DNA of 64,000 nt from a virus (Duplodnaviria; Caudoviricetes), in IMG/VR virus record IMGVR_UViG_3300010352_002815, positions 1 through 64,000 of that record; one strand, given 5' to 3'. Positions 866 through 31,793 of the stretch are shown here, in pieces. The notes under the pieces were generated by a model. That model was not told the DNA's origin. It made no database searches and was given only the letters and a program-made list of their open reading frames with translations. Numbering within the stretch: the first letter of the stretch is position 1; each line of letters opens with the position of its first letter. The position numbers and the translations under genes are program-made.

Positions 866-1597
866 TTAAATTCTATAATATATAGTGTAACTCCTATTAG
901 ACCAATTACACTTTCTGCGGGTTTTACCAACACGTCCAAATATTTTATTTAGTGTCACTGATATTTTTACGTAATTTTCCCGGTTGATAGACATATTTAA
1001 CGCCCGTAGCAAATACGGAACCGTACCAGGTGTTTTATCTTCGTCAATTACTAGGTCGGGCGTAGGCATATCCGGTAACAACGAAAGGAGTTTGCTTGTA
1101 AGAGTTTCTCTTTCTGGTTCGGTAACAATTACTCTATCCTTGTAATCTGAAAAGGATAGATCATGAAGTTTGCCAAGCTCGTTAAGACCTCTTGGCCACC
1201 AAGTCGGAATATCGGCTCCTGCATCTATATACATATATGACCGCTGATAAGGACTACCGCCATCCCTGCCTTTTGCTATATTACACGGTACACGAACTAT
1301 GCTTCCTCCTCGGATGCATTCATTTAATTCCCTAGTAACTGCGCACGATTTGAGTTGTACCCTAATTGCTTCGATTATATTTTGTGCTAAATGCAAGCTA
1401 GAAGGATCCACAACCGGCAACCCACTATCTTCTGATAAACGTAGATATTTTGGTTGTGTTGGCACAGTTGCTAATATACCACGAACTATCATATCGTGGT
1501 CAGGCTCAATTCTAATTTTATATGCATCTCTATGCACACCGTCTGCTTTCGCAGTTACGGTCTTACTCATTTCGTCTTGGCTAACAAACTCACTCAA
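866..1597 (-). CDS. hypothetical protein
   Basis: 243-aa ORF, GGAGG before TTG start, promoter at 1641-1660. Confidence 0.6.
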   Translation of the reverse strand: MSEFVSQDEMSKTVTAKADGVHRDAYKIRIEPDHDMIVRGILATVPTQPKYLRLSEDSGLPVVDPSSLHLAQNIIEAIRVQLKSCAVTRELNECIRGGSIVRVPCNIAKGRDGGSPYQRSYMYIDAGADIPTWWPRGLNELGKLHDLSFSDYKDRVIVTEPERETLTSKLLSLLPDMPTPDLVIDEDKTPGTVPYLLRALNMSINRENYVKISVTLNKIFGRVGKTRRKCNWSNRSYTIYYRI

Positions 1598-2410: not shown

Positions 2411-2821
2411 TCACGACCTTAGAATGTTTTTGGATATTACATATTCTAAAAACTTGCTATCTTGTAGATTATGTTCTGTTATGAAATTTGATAGTTCTGC
2501 CATGGTTTTTATAATATAATATACATGCTTATAAGCGTCCAGTTGTTTATATATCATTAATTCCAATAATGTCCTGGCTCCTTTATTATTATAATAAGCA
2601 TCCCACTGACGTGGTTCTTTATCAATAATATCATGATTTAAATGAATTCCTTTCATTATAATAGTATCATATTCTGTTTGTTCTATAATGCTTAATGTTC
2701 GAGTATTAAATGGAAACGTTGACAAGCATAATATAATACTATCCTTTATATCGCTCTCCTTGAAGTTAGGAATAATGTCATTAATATTTTTGTTAATGAT
2801 GATCATATAATCACCTCTCAA
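2411..2821 (-). CDS. hypothetical protein
   Basis: ORF in a co-oriented operon. Confidence 0.5.
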   Translation of the reverse strand: MRGDYMIIINKNINDIIPNFKESDIKDSIILCLSTFPFNTRTLSIIEQTEYDTIIMKGIHLNHDIIDKEPRQWDAYYNNKGARTLLELMIYKQLDAYKHVYYIIKTMAELSNFITEHNLQDSKFLEYVISKNILRS

Positions 2822-3050
2822 AGAATTCCAGGCAACTTTTGTCGAAATAAAACGACGATAATGCTTTTCCGTTTTCCATTATCATTGAGGATGTTCTGAT
2901 ATTAAATATTTCTTTTTGGTCCTCAAGAATTTTTAACGACTTATCAAGAATACCTTTGCCGTTACAGCAAGGAGTTGTATTATATATTTCTGTATATGAT
3001 ATTCCTGGAAAAATCTTAATAATATTTAGAATATCATCTACGGTTTGCAC
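2811..3050 (-). CDS. hypothetical protein, possible winged helix
   Basis: ILNIIKIFPGISYTEIY...LDKSLKILEDQKEI pattern resembles a wHTH. Confidence 0.4.
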   Translation of the reverse strand: MQTVDDILNIIKIFPGISYTEIYNTTPCCNGKGILDKSLKILEDQKEIFNIRTSSMIMENGKALSSFYFDKSCLEFFER

Positions 3051-5624: not shown

Positions 5625-5996
5625 TCATTTAATGATACAATTAATAGTGTTTTCTGCATTTACCACGTCTTCAAATAATTGATTCAAGGATACCTTCATT
5701 ACAATTCTATGTTGCATCATATATAAATTTGTTGGCGGACAGTCGTCATAATTATTTAATTTTACTAATATAGTTCCTAGACTGCGTTCAATACTATAAT
5801 GAAAAACACAACCAACATAATTTTTATTTCTTAATGCAAATATTCTTGATGCTAAATTTGGTATTTGGTTGTTTGCTCTTTTTGCCCAACGTTCATATAG
5901 CCATATTTGTGCCATGTGCTTTTGATATAAATCGATTTCCTTGTTTGATTGATATTGTTTTATATCAAATAACTTATCAGTTATGAACATTTGCAT
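5625..5996 (-). CDS. hypothetical protein
   Basis: ORF preceded by GGAGG. Confidence 0.55.
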   Translation of the reverse strand: MQMFITDKLFDIKQYQSNKEIDLYQKHMAQIWLYERWAKRANNQIPNLASRIFALRNKNYVGCVFHYSIERSLGTILVKLNNYDDCPPTNLYMMQHRIVMKVSLNQLFEDVVNAENTINCIIK

Positions 5997-10252: not shown

Positions 10253-11275
10253 TCATTCTCCATACTTTAGCAGAAATTCATTGCTGACGGCTTTAAAAGA
10301 CAGTCTGCCTAATTTGATGTCAGTACTTTCTGGAAGTGATCTAAAGACCAAACCTTCACGCAGAGTTTCCGGATTAATTTTAGAACTACCATCTGCCATT
10401 TTGAGCAAATCATCTACAGTATGATTTAGTTCCAACGTTCCTAAGTTGGGTACTAGAAAGTCTTTTCCTAGGCCAAATGCCTCAACAGTATCAACCATTG
10501 TTTGACATTCTAGATAGCAGTGATTGATCATGTCCCAGAAATTAAAGACTCTGAAATGCAGACCCTTTAAATTATATTTGTTCTTTTGAATGCCTTCGCC
10601 GAATAATTCGCCTTGAAGGGCAATTGTACTACCTAATGTTTTTAGAATTTCTTCTAAGTTATGGTCCGTAGCGTATCGCCAATAAGCATCTCCATTATAT
10701 TTATGATCAAAATCTGGAGCCAAGTCAACGTTTCGAGAGCATACGTGCATGCCGGTTTCTGTATTCAGGTAAACAGACATTGACGTACCATCCAACTTTT
10801 CATTTACGTTGAATACTTTGCCTTTATGACGTTCCAAGACATCCGGAATGTTTTGAACGCGCATTTCATCGGTTTTTGGGACAGCTAACCGGAATATTGG
10901 ACACCTTACACGACCTCTTAACTGTACTGGAACAGGAGGTTCGTACTTAGTGATTCCTAGAAGTTCGGAAACGTCTTGGTCAACATTATAAGAACCTTCA
11001 GGAAGTATATCCATTGGAAAGCAGATTCCTTGAGAAGTGACTCCTCGTAGTCGACAAGTTTTAATCTTGAATTTTTTGCTTCTCATGAATTCGTATTCGG
11101 GTTTTTCTGGTAGTAGACTATCAGGTTCGCAAAATACAATTTTATCGCCTATTTTAAATTGGTCCTTTTTGATCACTGACTGCCAACCATCTATTCTTGC
11201 CAGTTCGATATTGTTTGCTTCTGGAATTGCATTGATATCCAGAATTTCTTTTATTGATGCCATTTGTCGAGACAT
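10253..11275 (-). CDS. RNA ligase, Rnl2/DRB0094 family
   Basis: N-terminal OB module (AIPEANNIELARIDGWQSV), motif I EKLDGTS, QGELFG, FRVFN, EGLVF, FKAVSNEFLLK. Confidence 0.92.
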   Translation of the reverse strand: MSRQMASIKEILDINAIPEANNIELARIDGWQSVIKKDQFKIGDKIVFCEPDSLLPEKPEYEFMRSKKFKIKTCRLRGVTSQGICFPMDILPEGSYNVDQDVSELLGITKYEPPVPVQLRGRVRCPIFRLAVPKTDEMRVQNIPDVLERHKGKVFNVNEKLDGTSMSVYLNTETGMHVCSRNVDLAPDFDHKYNGDAYWRYATDHNLEEILKTLGSTIALQGELFGEGIQKNKYNLKGLHFRVFNFWDMINHCYLECQTMVDTVEAFGLGKDFLVPNLGTLELNHTVDDLLKMADGSSKINPETLREGLVFRSLPESTDIKLGRLSFKAVSNEFLLKYGE

Positions 11276-14772: not shown

Positions 14773-15336
14773 TTAATACTGCGGCGTATTGCCATATGAA
14801 TCCATATACATATACCCGTTGTACTCAGAAGTTCTTAAATAGGTCCCGGTGCAATATGACGGTATAGTTGAACTTACTGGAGCACTACCATATTTGATAA
14901 AATACCTATATGACTTGATTAAAAGATATGCTTCTCCTTGATCTGTTGGTTCATAATTTTTATATTCTTTATTAAATATTTTATCTTGTATGAAGGCACT
15001 CATTAGATCGCTATTTCTATGATGTTTTAATTTTACCACGTACTTCATATTTCTGGTAAGATAGTCATAGGTAGCAAAGAACAATCCGTCCATTTCGTCA
15101 TCGTACCACATGCGAGGATGTACTTTTTTAAGGTGATCTAATAAGTCCAGCGGCACTTGAACCTTTGAATTAACCATAATGATTATTGTTTTGTCGTGGG
15201 TTCGATGCCTATTTTGAAAACGAAATACAAAATCTGGCATATGACTATTAAGCCATTTTCGGAAAGAATACCTAATTAACATTTTGTGACTCCATGAATC
15301 TATCGTACGCCGTACATATGTTTCTTGCCAAGCCAA
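14773..15336 (-). CDS. hypothetical protein
   Basis: 187-aa ORF. Confidence 0.55.
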   Translation of the reverse strand: MAWQETYVRRTIDSWSHKMLIRYSFRKWLNSHMPDFVFRFQNRHRTHDKTIIIMVNSKVQVPLDLLDHLKKVHPRMWYDDEMDGLFFATYDYLTRNMKYVVKLKHHRNSDLMSAFIQDKIFNKEYKNYEPTDQGEAYLLIKSYRYFIKYGSAPVSSTIPSYCTGTYLRTSEYNGYMYMDSYGNTPQY

Positions 15337-15382: not shown

Positions 15383-15946
15383 TCACAACGTCACCTCTAA
15401 CATATCAAACGGCCGCATAACTTCCGGACAAAATCTTTCCGCAGATTCCAACGCTAACATTAATCGAGCTTTTGATGTCATTCCAAAGCACTCCTCGAAA
15501 CCATCAGTAGTGTGCAAAGACCCCAGGGCATAGTTTCGGCCGCTTCCGATTGCGATATAGTCAGACTTATGTGCTGTTACGCCATAGTCATAGCTAACTC
15601 GGAATATTTCATTGTCAACTGTTATCAGGAAATTAGCGTCCATTCTATGACATTCCAATTCATGACCTAATACATTATTGGAGTCCATGATGGTTTTGAT
15701 AGCAGGTACTATACCTTTAACGACATATTTATAATTGGAGTCATAATTATTTGACGGTAATTCAAAATAATTATCAACCAAAGAACCTTCGTGGCAGTTA
15801 CCTGCTCCTCCTATCAACACGTTATCAGACAATTTAATGATTTTAGGCAGATTACTGATCTCCCGGAAGGTTTGATCATATGTCAGGCAACGATCCGCAG
15901 CCATTATCATATTAGAAGGTGTTCGAAGGGCTATTATGCAAGTCAA
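15383..15946 (-). CDS. proteasome-beta/HslV-like Ntn-hydrolase (Thr protease)
   Basis: N-terminal M-T-C-I-I-A, AADR, PKI, IGGAG, YIAIGSG...ALGSL. Confidence 0.8.
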   Translation of the reverse strand: MTCIIALRTPSNMIMAADRCLTYDQTFREISNLPKIIKLSDNVLIGGAGNCHEGSLVDNYFELPSNNYDSNYKYVVKGIVPAIKTIMDSNNVLGHELECHRMDANFLITVDNEIFRVSYDYGVTAHKSDYIAIGSGRNYALGSLHTTDGFEECFGMTSKARLMLALESAERFCPEVMRPFDMLEVTL

Positions 15947-28291: not shown

Positions 28292-29062
28292 TTAAGCCTC
28301 ACTGAAATCCAAGGTCTTGCCATCCTTGGTGTACGTTACATTCTTCATGATTTCTTGCCAGGCTGCAGTTGTCTCCTGGTAGGAACCGAACTGACCGCTA
28401 CCATAAAGGTCTAGGATATCTCTCTTAGGTCTACCCTGATAATTGGCCTTCAGGAACTCCAATAGTTGCTTGGCTCGATCTGACAAAGCATTTACGCCTT
28501 TAACGATGGGCTTTGCTAGCTCCTTCTTGGTGATCGACTTCGGATCAATTTCCTTGAAGTTGTTCTTGGTCACGACGTCGAGTACATATTCGTCTCCAGG
28601 CTTAAAGAAGTCCTTGAGGGCAAACTCGTCACCGGGATTCACTGGAACGCCAGTTGCCCTTGTAATGAAGTCTGTAAAGGCTTTGCCGCCACCCATTCTG
28701 TTCCCGGCAGCGTCGTATAGGTCAATCGGGAATACTGCTCCAAACTTCAAGTCAGAACCAGACTTAGGTTCAGTGAACACAAATCGATAATGTGTTACGA
28801 AGGCAGTCTTCTTGCGAGCTTCCTTGTCGTTAGGACCAAGTGGCCAAAATTCATCGCCTACTGCATCTACGATAGCCTTTTGACTGTCATCTAAACTAGC
28901 ATATTCCTTACCAACAATGCCTTTGCTGTTGGATCGAAGACCTTCTCTGAACTGGACGACCTTTTCTTCTCTAATAATGTCCTTGAGTGTAACTTCGTAT
29001 GTTCCCTCAGCGATGCCGCTTCCCTTAATGACGATCTTCTCGTCCCATGCACTATTACTCAT
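28292..29062 (-). CDS. putative ssDNA-binding protein (OB-fold-like)
   Basis: IAEGTYEVTLKDI N-terminus typical of phage SSB-like proteins; upstream of the Sak4-like gene; own promoter. Confidence 0.45.
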   Translation of the reverse strand: MSNSAWDEKIVIKGSGIAEGTYEVTLKDIIREEKVVQFREGLRSNSKGIVGKEYASLDDSQKAIVDAVGDEFWPLGPNDKEARKKTAFVTHYRFVFTEPKSGSDLKFGAVFPIDLYDAAGNRMGGGKAFTDFITRATGVPVNPGDEFALKDFFKPGDEYVLDVVTKNNFKEIDPKSITKKELAKPIVKGVNALSDRAKQLLEFLKANYQGRPKRDILDLYGSGQFGSYQETTAAWQEIMKNVTYTKDGKTLDFSEA

Positions 29063-29097
29063 TATTTGATACCTTTCCTTATTTTACAATATAATTG

Positions 29098-29171: not shown

Positions 29172-29191
29172 AGTATTTAAAGTTTTTGGTT
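29172..29191 (-). promoter_or_regulatory. BRE/TATA-type viral promoter
   Basis: Minus strand AACCAAAAACTTTAAATACT. Confidence 0.7.
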
Positions 29192-29207: not shown

Positions 29208-29283
29208 TGATCCTGGCTGGAATTGAACCAACTTCGCTGGCAGCCTAGGCAACCAGACTCTTGCCGACATGAGTTACAGGACC
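29208..29283 (-). tRNA. tRNA-like RNA with a non-canonical 8-nt palindromic anticodon loop (identity undetermined)
   Basis: GGTCCTG TA ACTC ATGTCGGCAA GAGT C TGGTT GCCTAGGC TGCCA GCGAA GTTGG TTCAATT CCAGC CAGGATC A: acceptor, D and T arms are canonical; no encoded CCA. Confidence 0.8.
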
Positions 29284-29297
29284 AAATTATATTTTAA

Positions 29298-29375
29298 AGG
29301 GCTCCGTTAGCCGTCAATTAAGACGTACTCCCACCCATTCCTGGCACGGAGCGCACACCAGTTCCCTATAGCCCC
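29298..29375 (-). ncRNA. structured RNA (H-type pseudoknot plus hairpin) co-transcribed upstream of the tRNA-like gene
   Basis: S1 CTGGTG/TGCCAG, S2 GCTCCG/CGGAGC, hairpin CGTC-TTAATT-GACG, alternative end pairing GGGGCT/AGCCCT; GC-rich within AT-rich flanks. Confidence 0.5.
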
Positions 29376-29451
29376 TGAAAATGTTAATAAAACAACTTGG
29401 AAACATCGGAGAACCCTATTGCCTTACTAACAAAATAATAGTTAAATTAGT

Positions 29452-29470
29452 AGTATAAAAAGGTTTTGGT
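29452..29470 (-). promoter_or_regulatory. promoter of the ncRNA locus
   Basis: Minus strand ACCAAAACCTTTTTATACT; only RNA-like elements follow before the next promoter. Confidence 0.65.
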
Positions 29471-29471
29471 A

Positions 29472-29726
29472 CTACAGTTCTTCATCGATACACATATCTA
29501 CGAAAGACCATTTCTGCCCGACCATTGCTTGAGCAGCAGCCTGGGCATTTGGGTAGTCCTTCCCGGCAACCCAATACAGTCCATTAGATGGGCTATATCC
29601 AGCCCATTCTCCGAATGAATTTTTGAAGCTCATCACATGGGAAGCAGCGAGCTTTTCAGCAACTGCCTTCAATGGTAAGAAGCCCGTCACATCGCCTACT
29701 AAGATGGTTATTTGATCAAAGTTCAT
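29472..29726 (-). CDS. hypothetical protein
   Basis: Start reassigned to ATG 29726 behind GGAGGTGG. Confidence 0.55.
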   Translation of the reverse strand: MNFDQITILVGDVTGFLPLKAVAEKLAASHVMSFKNSFGEWAGYSPSNGLYWVAGKDYPNAQAAAQAMVGQKWSFVDMCIDEEL

Positions 29727-29727
29727 C

Positions 29728-29868
29728 TCAAGCCACCTCCTCGCATCCATTCCCATACAGGATATATATCCCATATTCGGGGTGTATGACACATTCCGCC
29801 CTAGCTTGGACGGATAAGTCATCGCTCACGATTGGCGAGCAGTGGATGCAGCCTACACAGATAGCCAT
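29728..29868 (-). CDS. 46-aa Cys-rich protein (not in ORF track)
   Basis: MAICVGCIHCSPIVSDDLSVQARAECVIHPEYGIYILYGNGCEEVA; GAGGT SD. Confidence 0.5.
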   Translation of the reverse strand: MAICVGCIHCSPIVSDDLSVQARAECVIHPEYGIYILYGNGCEEVA

Positions 29869-30371: not shown

Positions 30372-31793
30372 TTAAGTTACCGTTACAGTAATTGTTCTAG
30401 CTCGTATCCTTTGGTCTTCATCAATGTCTATAGTAGTGCCTGGTCCAGAAATCGTGGAACCATCACCCACAAGTGAACATGACGTTATACTATCAATACC
30501 GGTTATTAAATCAGAACTTGTATAGTCCATATAAATATAGAAGAATAAATCTGACCATTCGAGATCCTTTCCAATTGTAAATGAATTCAAGAAATCCGTT
30601 ATAGAATCTTTGATACTGTCATCTAAGGTTGCTGGCGCAGTACTTGTACCTACGACATTAATTGTTGCATCTACGTAGACTGTTCTTGGCAAGATATACA
30701 TATATGGATAGTCGCCCATTCCTATAAGAATATCGTAACTGTTGACACCAGAATAGAACGTTTCATTGATGTAAGCGGCACGATCATCGTCGTCTTCTAG
30801 AGTAGCTTCGATCGTATCTCCAATAATTGTACTTGCTGGTATTACAACTGTTGCGGTTCGTGATCTGCCTAAGATGTCAATATAATTTATAGTAAATGAA
30901 TCACCTGAAAGAGCATTTGAAACTGCTCGAACCAATATGCGACCGCCTGAACAATCAGATAAATGATCAACTACGACGCCAGTCCTTATAGTAGATCCTA
31001 ATTTACCTCGGCATGTTATTCCGGCGGCGACATTGTCCAAGAGGACTTCGCCAACATCATCATAATCATCGCCAACTCCTCCACTATAATCAACTACGAC
31101 TTCCAAATCACCATTACTTCGTGAGAATAGATGAGATTCTGAAATGTCCTCTAAATCAGTTAAATGTTCTTCAATAACTGTAGTAGTTGCAGTGCCTGTA
31201 GCCAAAACAGCATAATAATAACGATTTCGAAGGTCGTCGTCACTTTCTTGGTCAGTACCACCAGAAAACGCATTAAGGTTTTCGACCCTATCAATATCAT
31301 CAATAGCATATGGAATATTCGTAATCATGTATGCGGAAACGTTGCCTGATTCTCCGGAATTCACGGCTCTAGCTGCGATGTTAACTGAATTCTCTCCTAT
31401 GGAAATTTCACCATAGGCAGTTGTTTCAAAGAACACCCGACTGCCGTCAGATCCTACTGCCAGAGCTTTAGAACCTAACGGCACAGGAATTGCAACCGTT
31501 GCAATGTCCATGCTGGAAAATGTTATTGTACCAATTGCTTGATCGCCATCTAGACGACCTTCGGGAAGTCGGTCAACTACTAGAGCATCTAAGTCTGCAT
31601 CTTCGGCTGTTAATATCGAAATGCTATAAACTGAATCCTCGATTTTTTGATACATTAAATTGATTTGTATGGCAATAATCTCATCAATTATATCAAGCAT
31701 ACTGCCCGAGCTAAAATTCCGTATTTTAGGATGCCTTCGAATAATAGCTTCTCTTAGATCATCTTTAATATCTTCAATTTCAGGAACTAACAT
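30372..31793 (-). CDS. baseplate J-like wedge protein
   Basis: NFSSGSMLDII, TAEDADLD, AVNSGESGNV, FSGGTDQESDDDLRNR. Confidence 0.92.
   Translation of the reverse strand: MLVPEIEDIKDDLREAIIRRHPKIRNFSSGSMLDIIDEIIAIQINLMYQKIEDSVYSISILTAEDADLDALVVDRLPEGRLDGDQAIGTITFSSMDIATVAIPVPLGSKALAVGSDGSRVFFETTAYGEISIGENSVNIAARAVNSGESGNVSAYMITNIPYAIDDIDRVENLNAFSGGTDQESDDDLRNRYYYAVLATGTATTTVIEEHLTDLEDISESHLFSRSNGDLEVVVDYSGGVGDDYDDVGEVLLDNVAAGITCRGKLGSTIRTGVVVDHLSDCSGGRILVRAVSNALSGDSFTINYIDILGRSRTATVVIPASTIIGDTIEATLEDDDDRAAYINETFYSGVNSYDILIGMGDYPYMYILPRTVYVDATINVVGTSTAPATLDDSIKDSITDFLNSFTIGKDLEWSDLFFYIYMDYTSSDLITGIDSITSCSLVGDGSTISGPGTTIDIDEDQRIRARTITVTVT

Follow-up and report, generated by a model that had tools for sequence, protein, structure and literature searches.

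Genomic context of the tRNA look-alike

The DNA analysed here (the window) comprises 64,000 nucleotides, positions 1 to 64,000 of the 97.5-kb IMG/VR record IMGVR_UViG_3300010352_002815, and comes from a myovirus-like phage (baseplate J gene at 30372-31793) found in anaerobic-digester or fermentation metagenomes. Its minus strand contains a slot with, in order, an upstream copy of a promoter-like motif (P1), a structured leader RNA, an A/T linker, a tRNA-shaped RNA (hereafter the tRNA look-alike), a downstream copy of the motif (P2), and a conserved gene for a 256-aa protein. The features, in window coordinates, are as follows.

29472..29822, minus strand: lineage-specific 116-aa ORF upstream of the slot, no family match
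29454..29469, minus strand: P1, upstream copy of the promoter-like motif CCAAAAnCTTTAAATA, recognised by motif count and conserved in relatives
29298..29431, minus strand: structured leader RNA of 134 nt, P1 to look-alike (fold z -2.45)
Between 29284 and 29283, minus strand: predicted RNase P site of the look-alike
29283..29208, minus strand: tRNA-shaped RNA gene, 76 nt (Rfam RF00005, 31.4 bits; cloverleaf fold; lowered-threshold ARAGORN)
29237..29256, minus strand: remodelled anticodon arm (C26-G44, U-A, G-C, G-C, U.G, U.U, G-C and C-G, closing CUAG)
29243..29250, minus strand: nominal anticodon loop, the perfect 8-nt palindrome GCCUAGGC, which occurs once in the 97.5-kb record
29208, minus strand: discriminator A (A73) of the look-alike
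29174..29189, minus strand: P2, downstream copy of the CCAAAAnCTTTAAATA motif, between the look-alike and the 256-aa gene
28292..29062, minus strand: conserved 256-aa gene anchoring the slot, weak DUF669 lead only
10253-11275: RNA ligase (OB-fold domain and PF09414), 19 kb from the look-alike

The promoter-like motif is present in 12 copies in the record, compared with approximately zero in 20 shuffles, and all copies point at downstream genes. It has the form ACCAAAAnCTTTAAATAC (for example at window positions 1643, 1937, 12785, 13453, 14658, 23766, and 49713) and is conserved in the clade; some copies carry a T4-late-like TATAAATA core. The sequence-only reading had endowed the look-alike with a promoter of its own. 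However, the motif lies at least 157 nt upstream of the 5' end of the look-alike, behind another structured RNA, and we conclude that the look-alike has no private promoter. No terminator was found in the slot after the look-alike. On the plus strand, a near-consensus σ70-like promoter at 29066-29095 (TTGATA, 18 nt, TATAAT; 11 of 12 matches) is directed through P2 and the look-alike in antisense orientation, and may be a chance occurrence in AT-rich DNA.

The leader RNA is composed of an AU-rich hairpin (29376-29431) and a 78-nt domain with 59% GC (29298-29375), and is separated from the look-alike by a 14-nt linker of pure A/T. It matches no Rfam family and has no homolog in relatives. The 78-nt domain (minus strand) starts with GGGGCUAUAG, which could pair at six of seven positions with the domain's own 3' end, AGCCCU. 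Judging from its sequence, this domain could represent a second tRNA-derived module in a more degraded state; Rfam recognises no tRNA in it, and the similarity between the upstream RNA and the look-alike is not significant, with 41 of 500 shuffles scoring as well. The look-alike itself has a GC content of 54%, while the spacers have 0-29% and the genome 36.5%. A GC-rich look-alike in AT-rich flanks points to recent gain or to selection, and not to long decay. Sak4-like and ERCC4 genes lie downstream of the 256-aa gene, and the 116-aa ORF on the other side of the slot is not homologous to the ORF found at the same place in relatives.

The body of the look-alike is that of a tRNA

The acceptor stem of the look-alike is fully paired over 7 bp (GGUCCUG/CAGGAUC, with G2.U71), as are the 4-bp D stem (ACUC/GAGU) and the 5-bp stem of the T arm (GUUGG-UUCAAUU-CCAGC). 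U8-A9 is present, A14, G18G19, and A21 are found in the D arm, and the T arm contains G53-C61, U54/A58, and C56. The variable loop has 5 nt (GCGAA, with G46), and position 15 faces position 48 in an unusual combination, U15/A48. Every body feature listed in the sequence-only reading (the acceptor, D, and T arms, U8-A9, U15/A48, and the variable loop) is therefore there on the minus strand, and the nucleotides that make tertiary contacts in elongator tRNAs (U8, A14, G18G19, A21, G53-C61, T54-A58, and C56) are all in place. CCA is not encoded; the trailer is UUUAAU. A phage CCA-adding enzyme was not found.

The Rfam tRNA model (RF00005) scores the look-alike at 31.4 bits, above its cut-off of 29, over model positions 1-71 (E = 1.8e-4 on 900 nt, 4.7e-6 per genome), which places it in the family and makes it the sole Rfam tRNA match in the 97.5-kb record. 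A run with fast filters on the whole window missed it. ARAGORN made no call at default settings. At 95% thresholds it reported tRNA-? (Pyl or Leu) with a 6-nt loop and named no anticodon; such an undetermined call on a good body had been anticipated. With introns allowed, ARAGORN proposed Pro(AGG) with a 3-nt "intron", a solution that we rejected, as it would leave A34 and C37; to our knowledge, there are no known 3-nt introns of this kind. Neither ARAGORN nor Rfam called a tmRNA. The minimum free energy of the cloverleaf is -27.3 kcal/mol (z -2.2). A second scanner match, at 15126-15220, falls within an opposite-strand ORF and was put down to chance.

The anticodon arm is rebuilt

The nominal anticodon stem, UGGUU/UGCCA, consists of three Watson-Crick pairs, one U.G, and one U.U (U31.U39). 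As had been noted from the letters, this weak stem carries an 8-nt palindromic loop centred on CUAG, at window positions 29243-29250; a C26-G44 pair, which is possible in addition, goes beyond the earlier description. The chance that a random 8-mer is a Watson-Crick palindrome is 4^-4. ViennaRNA adds the pairs G32-C and C33-G, which turns the arm into an 8-bp rod with one U.U and a CUAG tetraloop; pair probabilities along the whole rod, both loop-closing pairs included, are approximately 0.55-0.57. The nominal loop is thus 8 nt long, or 10 nt in the register chosen by cmscan. The genome avoids neither CTAG nor CCTAGG.

All defects of the look-alike (one extra loop nucleotide, the lack of a U33/R37 register, and the U31.U39 mismatch) fall within the 18-20 nt of the anticodon arm, and the remaining 56 nt retain every pair and every tertiary nucleotide. 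No single indel can restore a canonical loop from either the 8-nt or the 10-nt loop. The view that the body was preserved while the decoding end was rebuilt is upheld by these results.

The same sequence is found in independent assemblies

Exact-protein look-up with the two flanking genes was used to find assemblies made from other samples and by other assemblers. Four further assemblies from four samples span the site (ENA ERZ27257449, ENA ERZ27257423, JGI 3300025867, and JGI 3300009692), and in all of them the look-alike and the whole 409-bp intergenic region are identical, with zero differences. A normal 7-nt loop, which the sequence-only reading had allowed might appear in reads or relatives, was not seen in any of the four, and we conclude that an indel or assembly error is excluded. 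The four assemblies represent the same strain, so that they confirm the sequence and do not inform on selection. In three other independent assemblies of this strain (L231, L236, and L237), the contig breaks off in the slot or next to it, at window positions 29175, 29582, and 29593. This suggests that variants with different cargo co-occur, i.e., that the population is heterogeneous.

The look-alike lacks the properties of a decoder

A functional elongator has a 7-nt loop, U33, a purine at position 37, and a 5-bp anticodon stem, and the look-alike does not show this combination. The earlier conclusion that it is not an ordinary decoder agrees with our finding that U33 and R37 never occur together in any register: position 33 is C in the CUA, UAG, and CUAG registers alike, and the register with U33 gives the anticodon AGG and C37. 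ArgRS and LysRS need anticodon bases, and ArgRS needs A20 as well (general source, PMC9976931). The look-alike has C at position 20 and neither C35 nor U35; by the known identity rules, charging by either enzyme is therefore unlikely.

The phage uses the standard code, with ORFs of at least 100 aa spanning 87% of the record. TAG terminates 13 of 123 genes, and beyond it the next in-frame stop comes after a median of 4 codons; taken as a sense codon, TAG yields the smallest gain in coding coverage among the three stop codons (below TGA and TAA). These results speak against an amber suppressor of a TAG-recoded phage. A quadruplet or +1 frameshift suppressor would have an 8-nt loop with U33 and a stacked purine 3' of the anticodon, and sites in need of suppression. 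The look-alike has the 8-nt loop but C at position 33 in these registers, and a CUAG reader would frameshift at 92 ordinary in-frame CUA-G sites. Amber or quadruplet reading, one of the options offered by the sequence-only reading, is disfavoured by the ordinary TAG stops, by these 92 sites, and by the weak anticodon stem.

The slot in sister phages

The arrangement P1, cargo, P2, followed by the 256-aa gene, is found in 18 of the 23 loci from relatives; the other five show the proximal motif only. The commonest cargo is a plain AT-rich hairpin segment of 95 nt, and so a tRNA shape is not required in the slot. Near-complete relatives (ca. 125 kb) have one tRNA each, in the same region, and real tRNAs (Ser and Leu) occur there in sister phages.

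Locus L010 contains an intact tRNA-Ser(GCU) (1251-1337, 56.7 bits). Directly after it lies a 127-nt element (1347-1473, plus strand) with a 7-bp acceptor stem, a consensus T arm, and a long internal hairpin. L015 has a 68-nt four-arm cloverleaf (5786-5853), both ends of which align to the tRNA-Ser(GCU) of L010 and which, as judged by sequence, is clearly derived from it. In this element, a 6-bp stem with a GAAGA loop stands in place of the anticodon and variable arms; a compensatory change is seen in one acceptor pair, the T stem contains one mismatch, and the element scores 27.3 bits as a tRNA. The 62-nt element of L016 (5709-5770) has a 7/7 acceptor stem, a 5/5 T stem with a consensus T loop, and a single arm of 4 bp topped by a 5-nt loop; an alignment to the Ser anticodon arm covers part of the element. 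Its T arm is perfect although three T-stem pairs differ from those of the tRNA-Ser. Across the L010, L015, and L016 sequences, 90.6% of acceptor and T-stem cells pair, compared with 25-41% when partners are slid. Three pairs are changed on both sides, which with three sequences is not significant (65 of 500 shuffles reach this value). The Rfam tRNA model recognises neither the L016 element nor the 127-nt element of L010, and, together with the T-stem mismatch of L015, this means that the series can also be read as progressive decay. The loops of the sister elements, GAAGA and UAAUU, are non-palindromic. Anticodon-less cloverleaf elements are seen in the slot of L039, L040, and L005 as well.

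The build of a non-decoding tRNA look-alike, an acceptor and T-arm top half with no usable anticodon, is thus found both in the look-alike of the window and in the sister elements of the same slot. We conclude that in at least two lineages tRNA genes of the slot have lost the decoding arm only.

Other cargo differs in kind. In L034, an 80-aa ORF (2540-2782, plus strand) in the slot is Tad2-like (Thoeris anti-defence 2; PF11195, E = 6.5e-18), and hence the slot can carry anti-defence cargo. The cargo of L037 and L038 is a TnpB N-terminal remnant. The slot is a turnover hot-spot for accessory cargo. Arrays of a ca. 34-nt hairpin repeat, GCAATTTAC..GTAGATTGCCAC, with spacers of ca. 30-40 nt, are found at approximately 5440-5750 in L011 and 5690-5860 in L014, the latter adjoining the end of a TnpB-like ORF; a mini array and IS-associated RNA repeats are both possible readings.

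Origin of the look-alike

A scan for the exact acceptor stem and T loop returned at least 120 cellular tRNAs. Among the 80 cellular matches fetched, 70 were tRNA-Arg, mostly from Bacteroidota, and 10 were tRNA-Lys, from Anaerolineaceae, Ardenticatenaceae, and Cloacimonadota. The same acceptor stem had 44 matches in viral contigs, including 28 Arg, 9 Met, and 5 Glu tRNAs. By sequence, the acceptor stem is of a type used mainly by tRNA-Arg and also by tRNAs for Lys, Met, and Glu. No full-length relative was found among tRNAs that share the acceptor stem, and the T arm of the look-alike was matched by none of 124 such tRNAs. An attP copy of a host tRNA appears unlikely, given this unmatched T arm and given that no tyrosine or serine recombinase/integrase was found in the 97.5-kb record (which is 69% complete, so that absence is not proof).

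An exact 22-mer of the look-alike had no match in IMG/VR. In blastn searches with the intergenic region and the RNA, matches to GenBank phages were confined to 18 nt of the T arm; neither 16 IMG/VR loci nor 22 metagenome loci yielded a homolog of the look-alike by blastn. Homologs of the two lineage-specific ORFs were located on short or unrelated contigs that lack the slot. With no diverged homolog in IMG/VR, the 22 metagenome loci, or GenBank phages, conservation and covariation provide no evidence on the look-alike itself.

An IMG/VR scan for GCCTAGGC upstream of a T loop returned unrelated high-GC phage tRNAs; it had no control pattern, and we make no claim of enrichment. Unrelated high-GC viral contigs (L018 and L022, also L019 and L020) contain tRNAs with a short variable loop and CCUAGG centred in the anticodon loop. 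In L018 and L022, these tRNAs have a 6-bp anticodon stem, the loop CCUAGGC, C at position 33, and the nominal anticodon UAG. An apparent 8-nt loop (ttca) in L213 was rejected as a relative, since it is UCA-centred, like the adjacent tRNA-like gene, and looks like an opal suppressor. The two adjoining tRNA-like genes (2778-2936, minus strand) have UCA-centred loops and look like an opal suppressor pair; the phage they belong to may read TGA as sense.

Discussion

We put at about one half the probability that the tRNA look-alike does not decode, is released from the P1 leader by RNase P and RNase Z as a tRNA-shaped RNA, and is retained because of its shape. The sequences show the cloverleaf, its recurrence in other assemblies, its setting in the slot, and a genome that needs no recoding; from these we infer transcription, processing, and retention by selection. 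A tRNA-derived gene would have ceased to decode, its L-shape-forming body staying intact, and several changes would have reshaped its anticodon arm as a closed rod ending in a CUAG tetraloop, which can also be drawn as an 8-nt palindromic loop. Transcription would start at P1, with the RNA contained in the leader of the 256-aa operon. Host RNase P would then cut the 5' end, where U occupies position -1, and RNase Z would cut the 3' end, where a U-rich trailer follows and CCA is not encoded, the products being a tRNA-shaped small RNA and an mRNA with a trimmed 5' end. The benefit would lie in the tRNA shape, which could act as a module for processing or stability or give a stable small RNA, rather than in translation.

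The main rival is a young pseudogene, i.e., a tRNA gene whose anticodon arm was recently inactivated and which is now neutral and will be deleted like other cargo of the slot. The look-alike belongs to a singleton lineage with no diverged homolog, cargo in the slot turns over fast and includes TnpB remnants, the L010, L015, and L016 elements can be read as a deletion series, and three other assemblies break at or beside the slot, all of which suits a relic. Nevertheless, we consider a relic somewhat unlikely. Its visible defects would have to be restricted to an anticodon arm of 18-20 nt while the other 56 nt are intact; more than one mutational event, by our reasoning, separates its loop from any canonical one; and the island has kept its high GC content amid an AT-rich background. 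The perfect T arm of L016, despite three T-stem pairs unlike those of tRNA-Ser, also argues against decay. The confinement of defects to one arm, the several events needed, and the intact GC island are the reasons for which a non-decoding RNA kept for its shape is favoured over a relic.

The remaining readings are less probable. That the RNA is a working decoder with an 8-nt loop, be it one that suppresses amber codons (CUA), reads CUAG as a quadruplet, or, as yeast mitochondrial tRNA-Thr1 does, reads CUN codons (UAG), is very unlikely, and we rank it last: U33 and purine 37 are absent together in all registers, the weak anticodon stem carries a loop that folds shut in the predicted structure, and the anticodon bases (and A20 for Arg) needed by the Arg and Lys synthetases are missing. 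TAG serves as the stop of 13 genes, behind which another stop follows after a median of 4 codons, and reading it as sense gains less coverage than TGA or TAA; frameshifting would occur at 92 in-frame CUA-G sites. The body would fit the ribosome, and decoders with 8-nt anticodon loops do exist, both natural, as in yeast mitochondrial tRNA-Thr1(UAG) (PMC3113583, PMC7609411), and engineered, as frameshift or quadruplet suppressors (PMC9094744). The look-alike resembles them in having a nominal loop of 8 nt with UAG/CUA at the centre, but its loop is self-complementary and predicted closed, it has no U33/R37 register, and no codon needs it. According to model folds, the perfect 8-nt palindrome could instead give a self-dimerising RNA, two tRNA-shaped molecules being joined in a kissing or extended-duplex dimer, for which cofolding yields -70.0 kcal/mol versus 2 x -27.3 for two monomers. 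We give this a slim chance, since any palindromic hairpin cofolds well, the monomer fold closes the two outer pairs to leave a 4-nt loop, and the sister elements end in the loops GAAGA and UAAUU, neither of them a palindrome. If the two G-C pairs are counted as stem, the chance palindrome is only the CUAG tetraloop, 1 in 16. A counter-defence decoy is improbable to a lesser degree. By analogy with known phage strategies, an uncleavable tRNA mimic, early and abundant, might bind or titrate a host defence nuclease or sensor that targets tRNA. Anticodon nucleases generally read the anticodon loop, and it is this loop that is missing from the look-alike. On the other hand, the acceptor stem is as in Arg and Lys tRNAs, the classic targets of anticodon nucleases, and the same slot of L034 holds the Tad2-like anti-Thoeris gene. 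Defence nucleases that cut the anticodon arm have been described (PMC13056530, PMC12445682), and changes in the anticodon loop let phage tRNAs escape such nucleases (PMC10264068, PMC11464382, PMC11555353). The look-alike is likewise phage-borne, with a body above the Rfam threshold and changes concentrated in the anticodon loop. However, these known phage solutions are functional decoding tRNAs that retain a 7-nt loop, U33, and a usable anticodon, none of which the look-alike has. The RNA ligase lies 19 kb away, and no adjacent tRNA-repair gene was found; together with the non-significant similarity to the upstream RNA, this leaves the earlier proposal of a system that unites the look-alike, the ligase, and the upstream RNA weak. 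In a related and equally improbable version, the sealed palindromic arm would itself be the adaptation: an uncleavable mimic, possibly a dimer, from an anti-defence slot might trap or blind a host immune nuclease that targets tRNA. If true, this would be an RNA decoy form of the known strategy in which phage tRNAs act against anticodon nucleases.

The RNAC and RNAD of phage T4 have tRNA-like 3' parts and share tRNA processing. They are small RNAs of the T4 tRNA gene region, and their role is unknown (PMC3014915). Like these stable non-tRNA RNAs, which are co-transcribed with the phage tRNA genes beside them, the look-alike is phage-borne and non-decoding; the promoter motifs, U at -1, and U-rich trailer lacking CCA are features by which it might be made and processed. 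The two kinds are unrelated in sequence; the look-alike has every part of a cloverleaf in its 76 nt and departs from a tRNA in the anticodon arm alone, and it stands alone in a promoter-flanked slot, outside any tRNA cluster, and is known here from its sequence. In eukaryotes, mascRNA is a tRNA-like processing module at the 3' end of MALAT1. Both mascRNA (mentioned in PMC4919922) and the look-alike are cloverleaf mimics with a non-decoding anticodon arm inside a longer transcript, and RNase P and RNase Z would set the flanking ends; the look-alike differs in being from a phage and unrelated in sequence, and its cleavage is a prediction. We conclude that the look-alike is either a further case of the non-decoding phage tRNA look-alike kind, with a rebuilt, closed anticodon arm, or a young relic.

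Phage tRNA genes are usually discussed as decoders, which supply codons or replace tRNAs cut by host defences. Here, within one clade, tRNA genes of a slot lose the decoding arm and retain the tRNA shape, and the same slot can hold an anti-defence gene. If the shape is under selection, the clade is a tractable place to ask what non-decoding tRNA-shaped RNAs do in phages, an open question since the discovery of T4 RNAC and RNAD. If it is not, the clade documents the death of phage tRNA genes. For annotation, the locus serves as a warning that a tRNA match barely above threshold may be no decoder.

Elsewhere in the window, a 187-aa ORF at 15383-15946 (minus strand) matches proteasome subunit family PF00227 (E = 1.2e-10), and a second 187-aa ORF lies beside it at 14773-15336.
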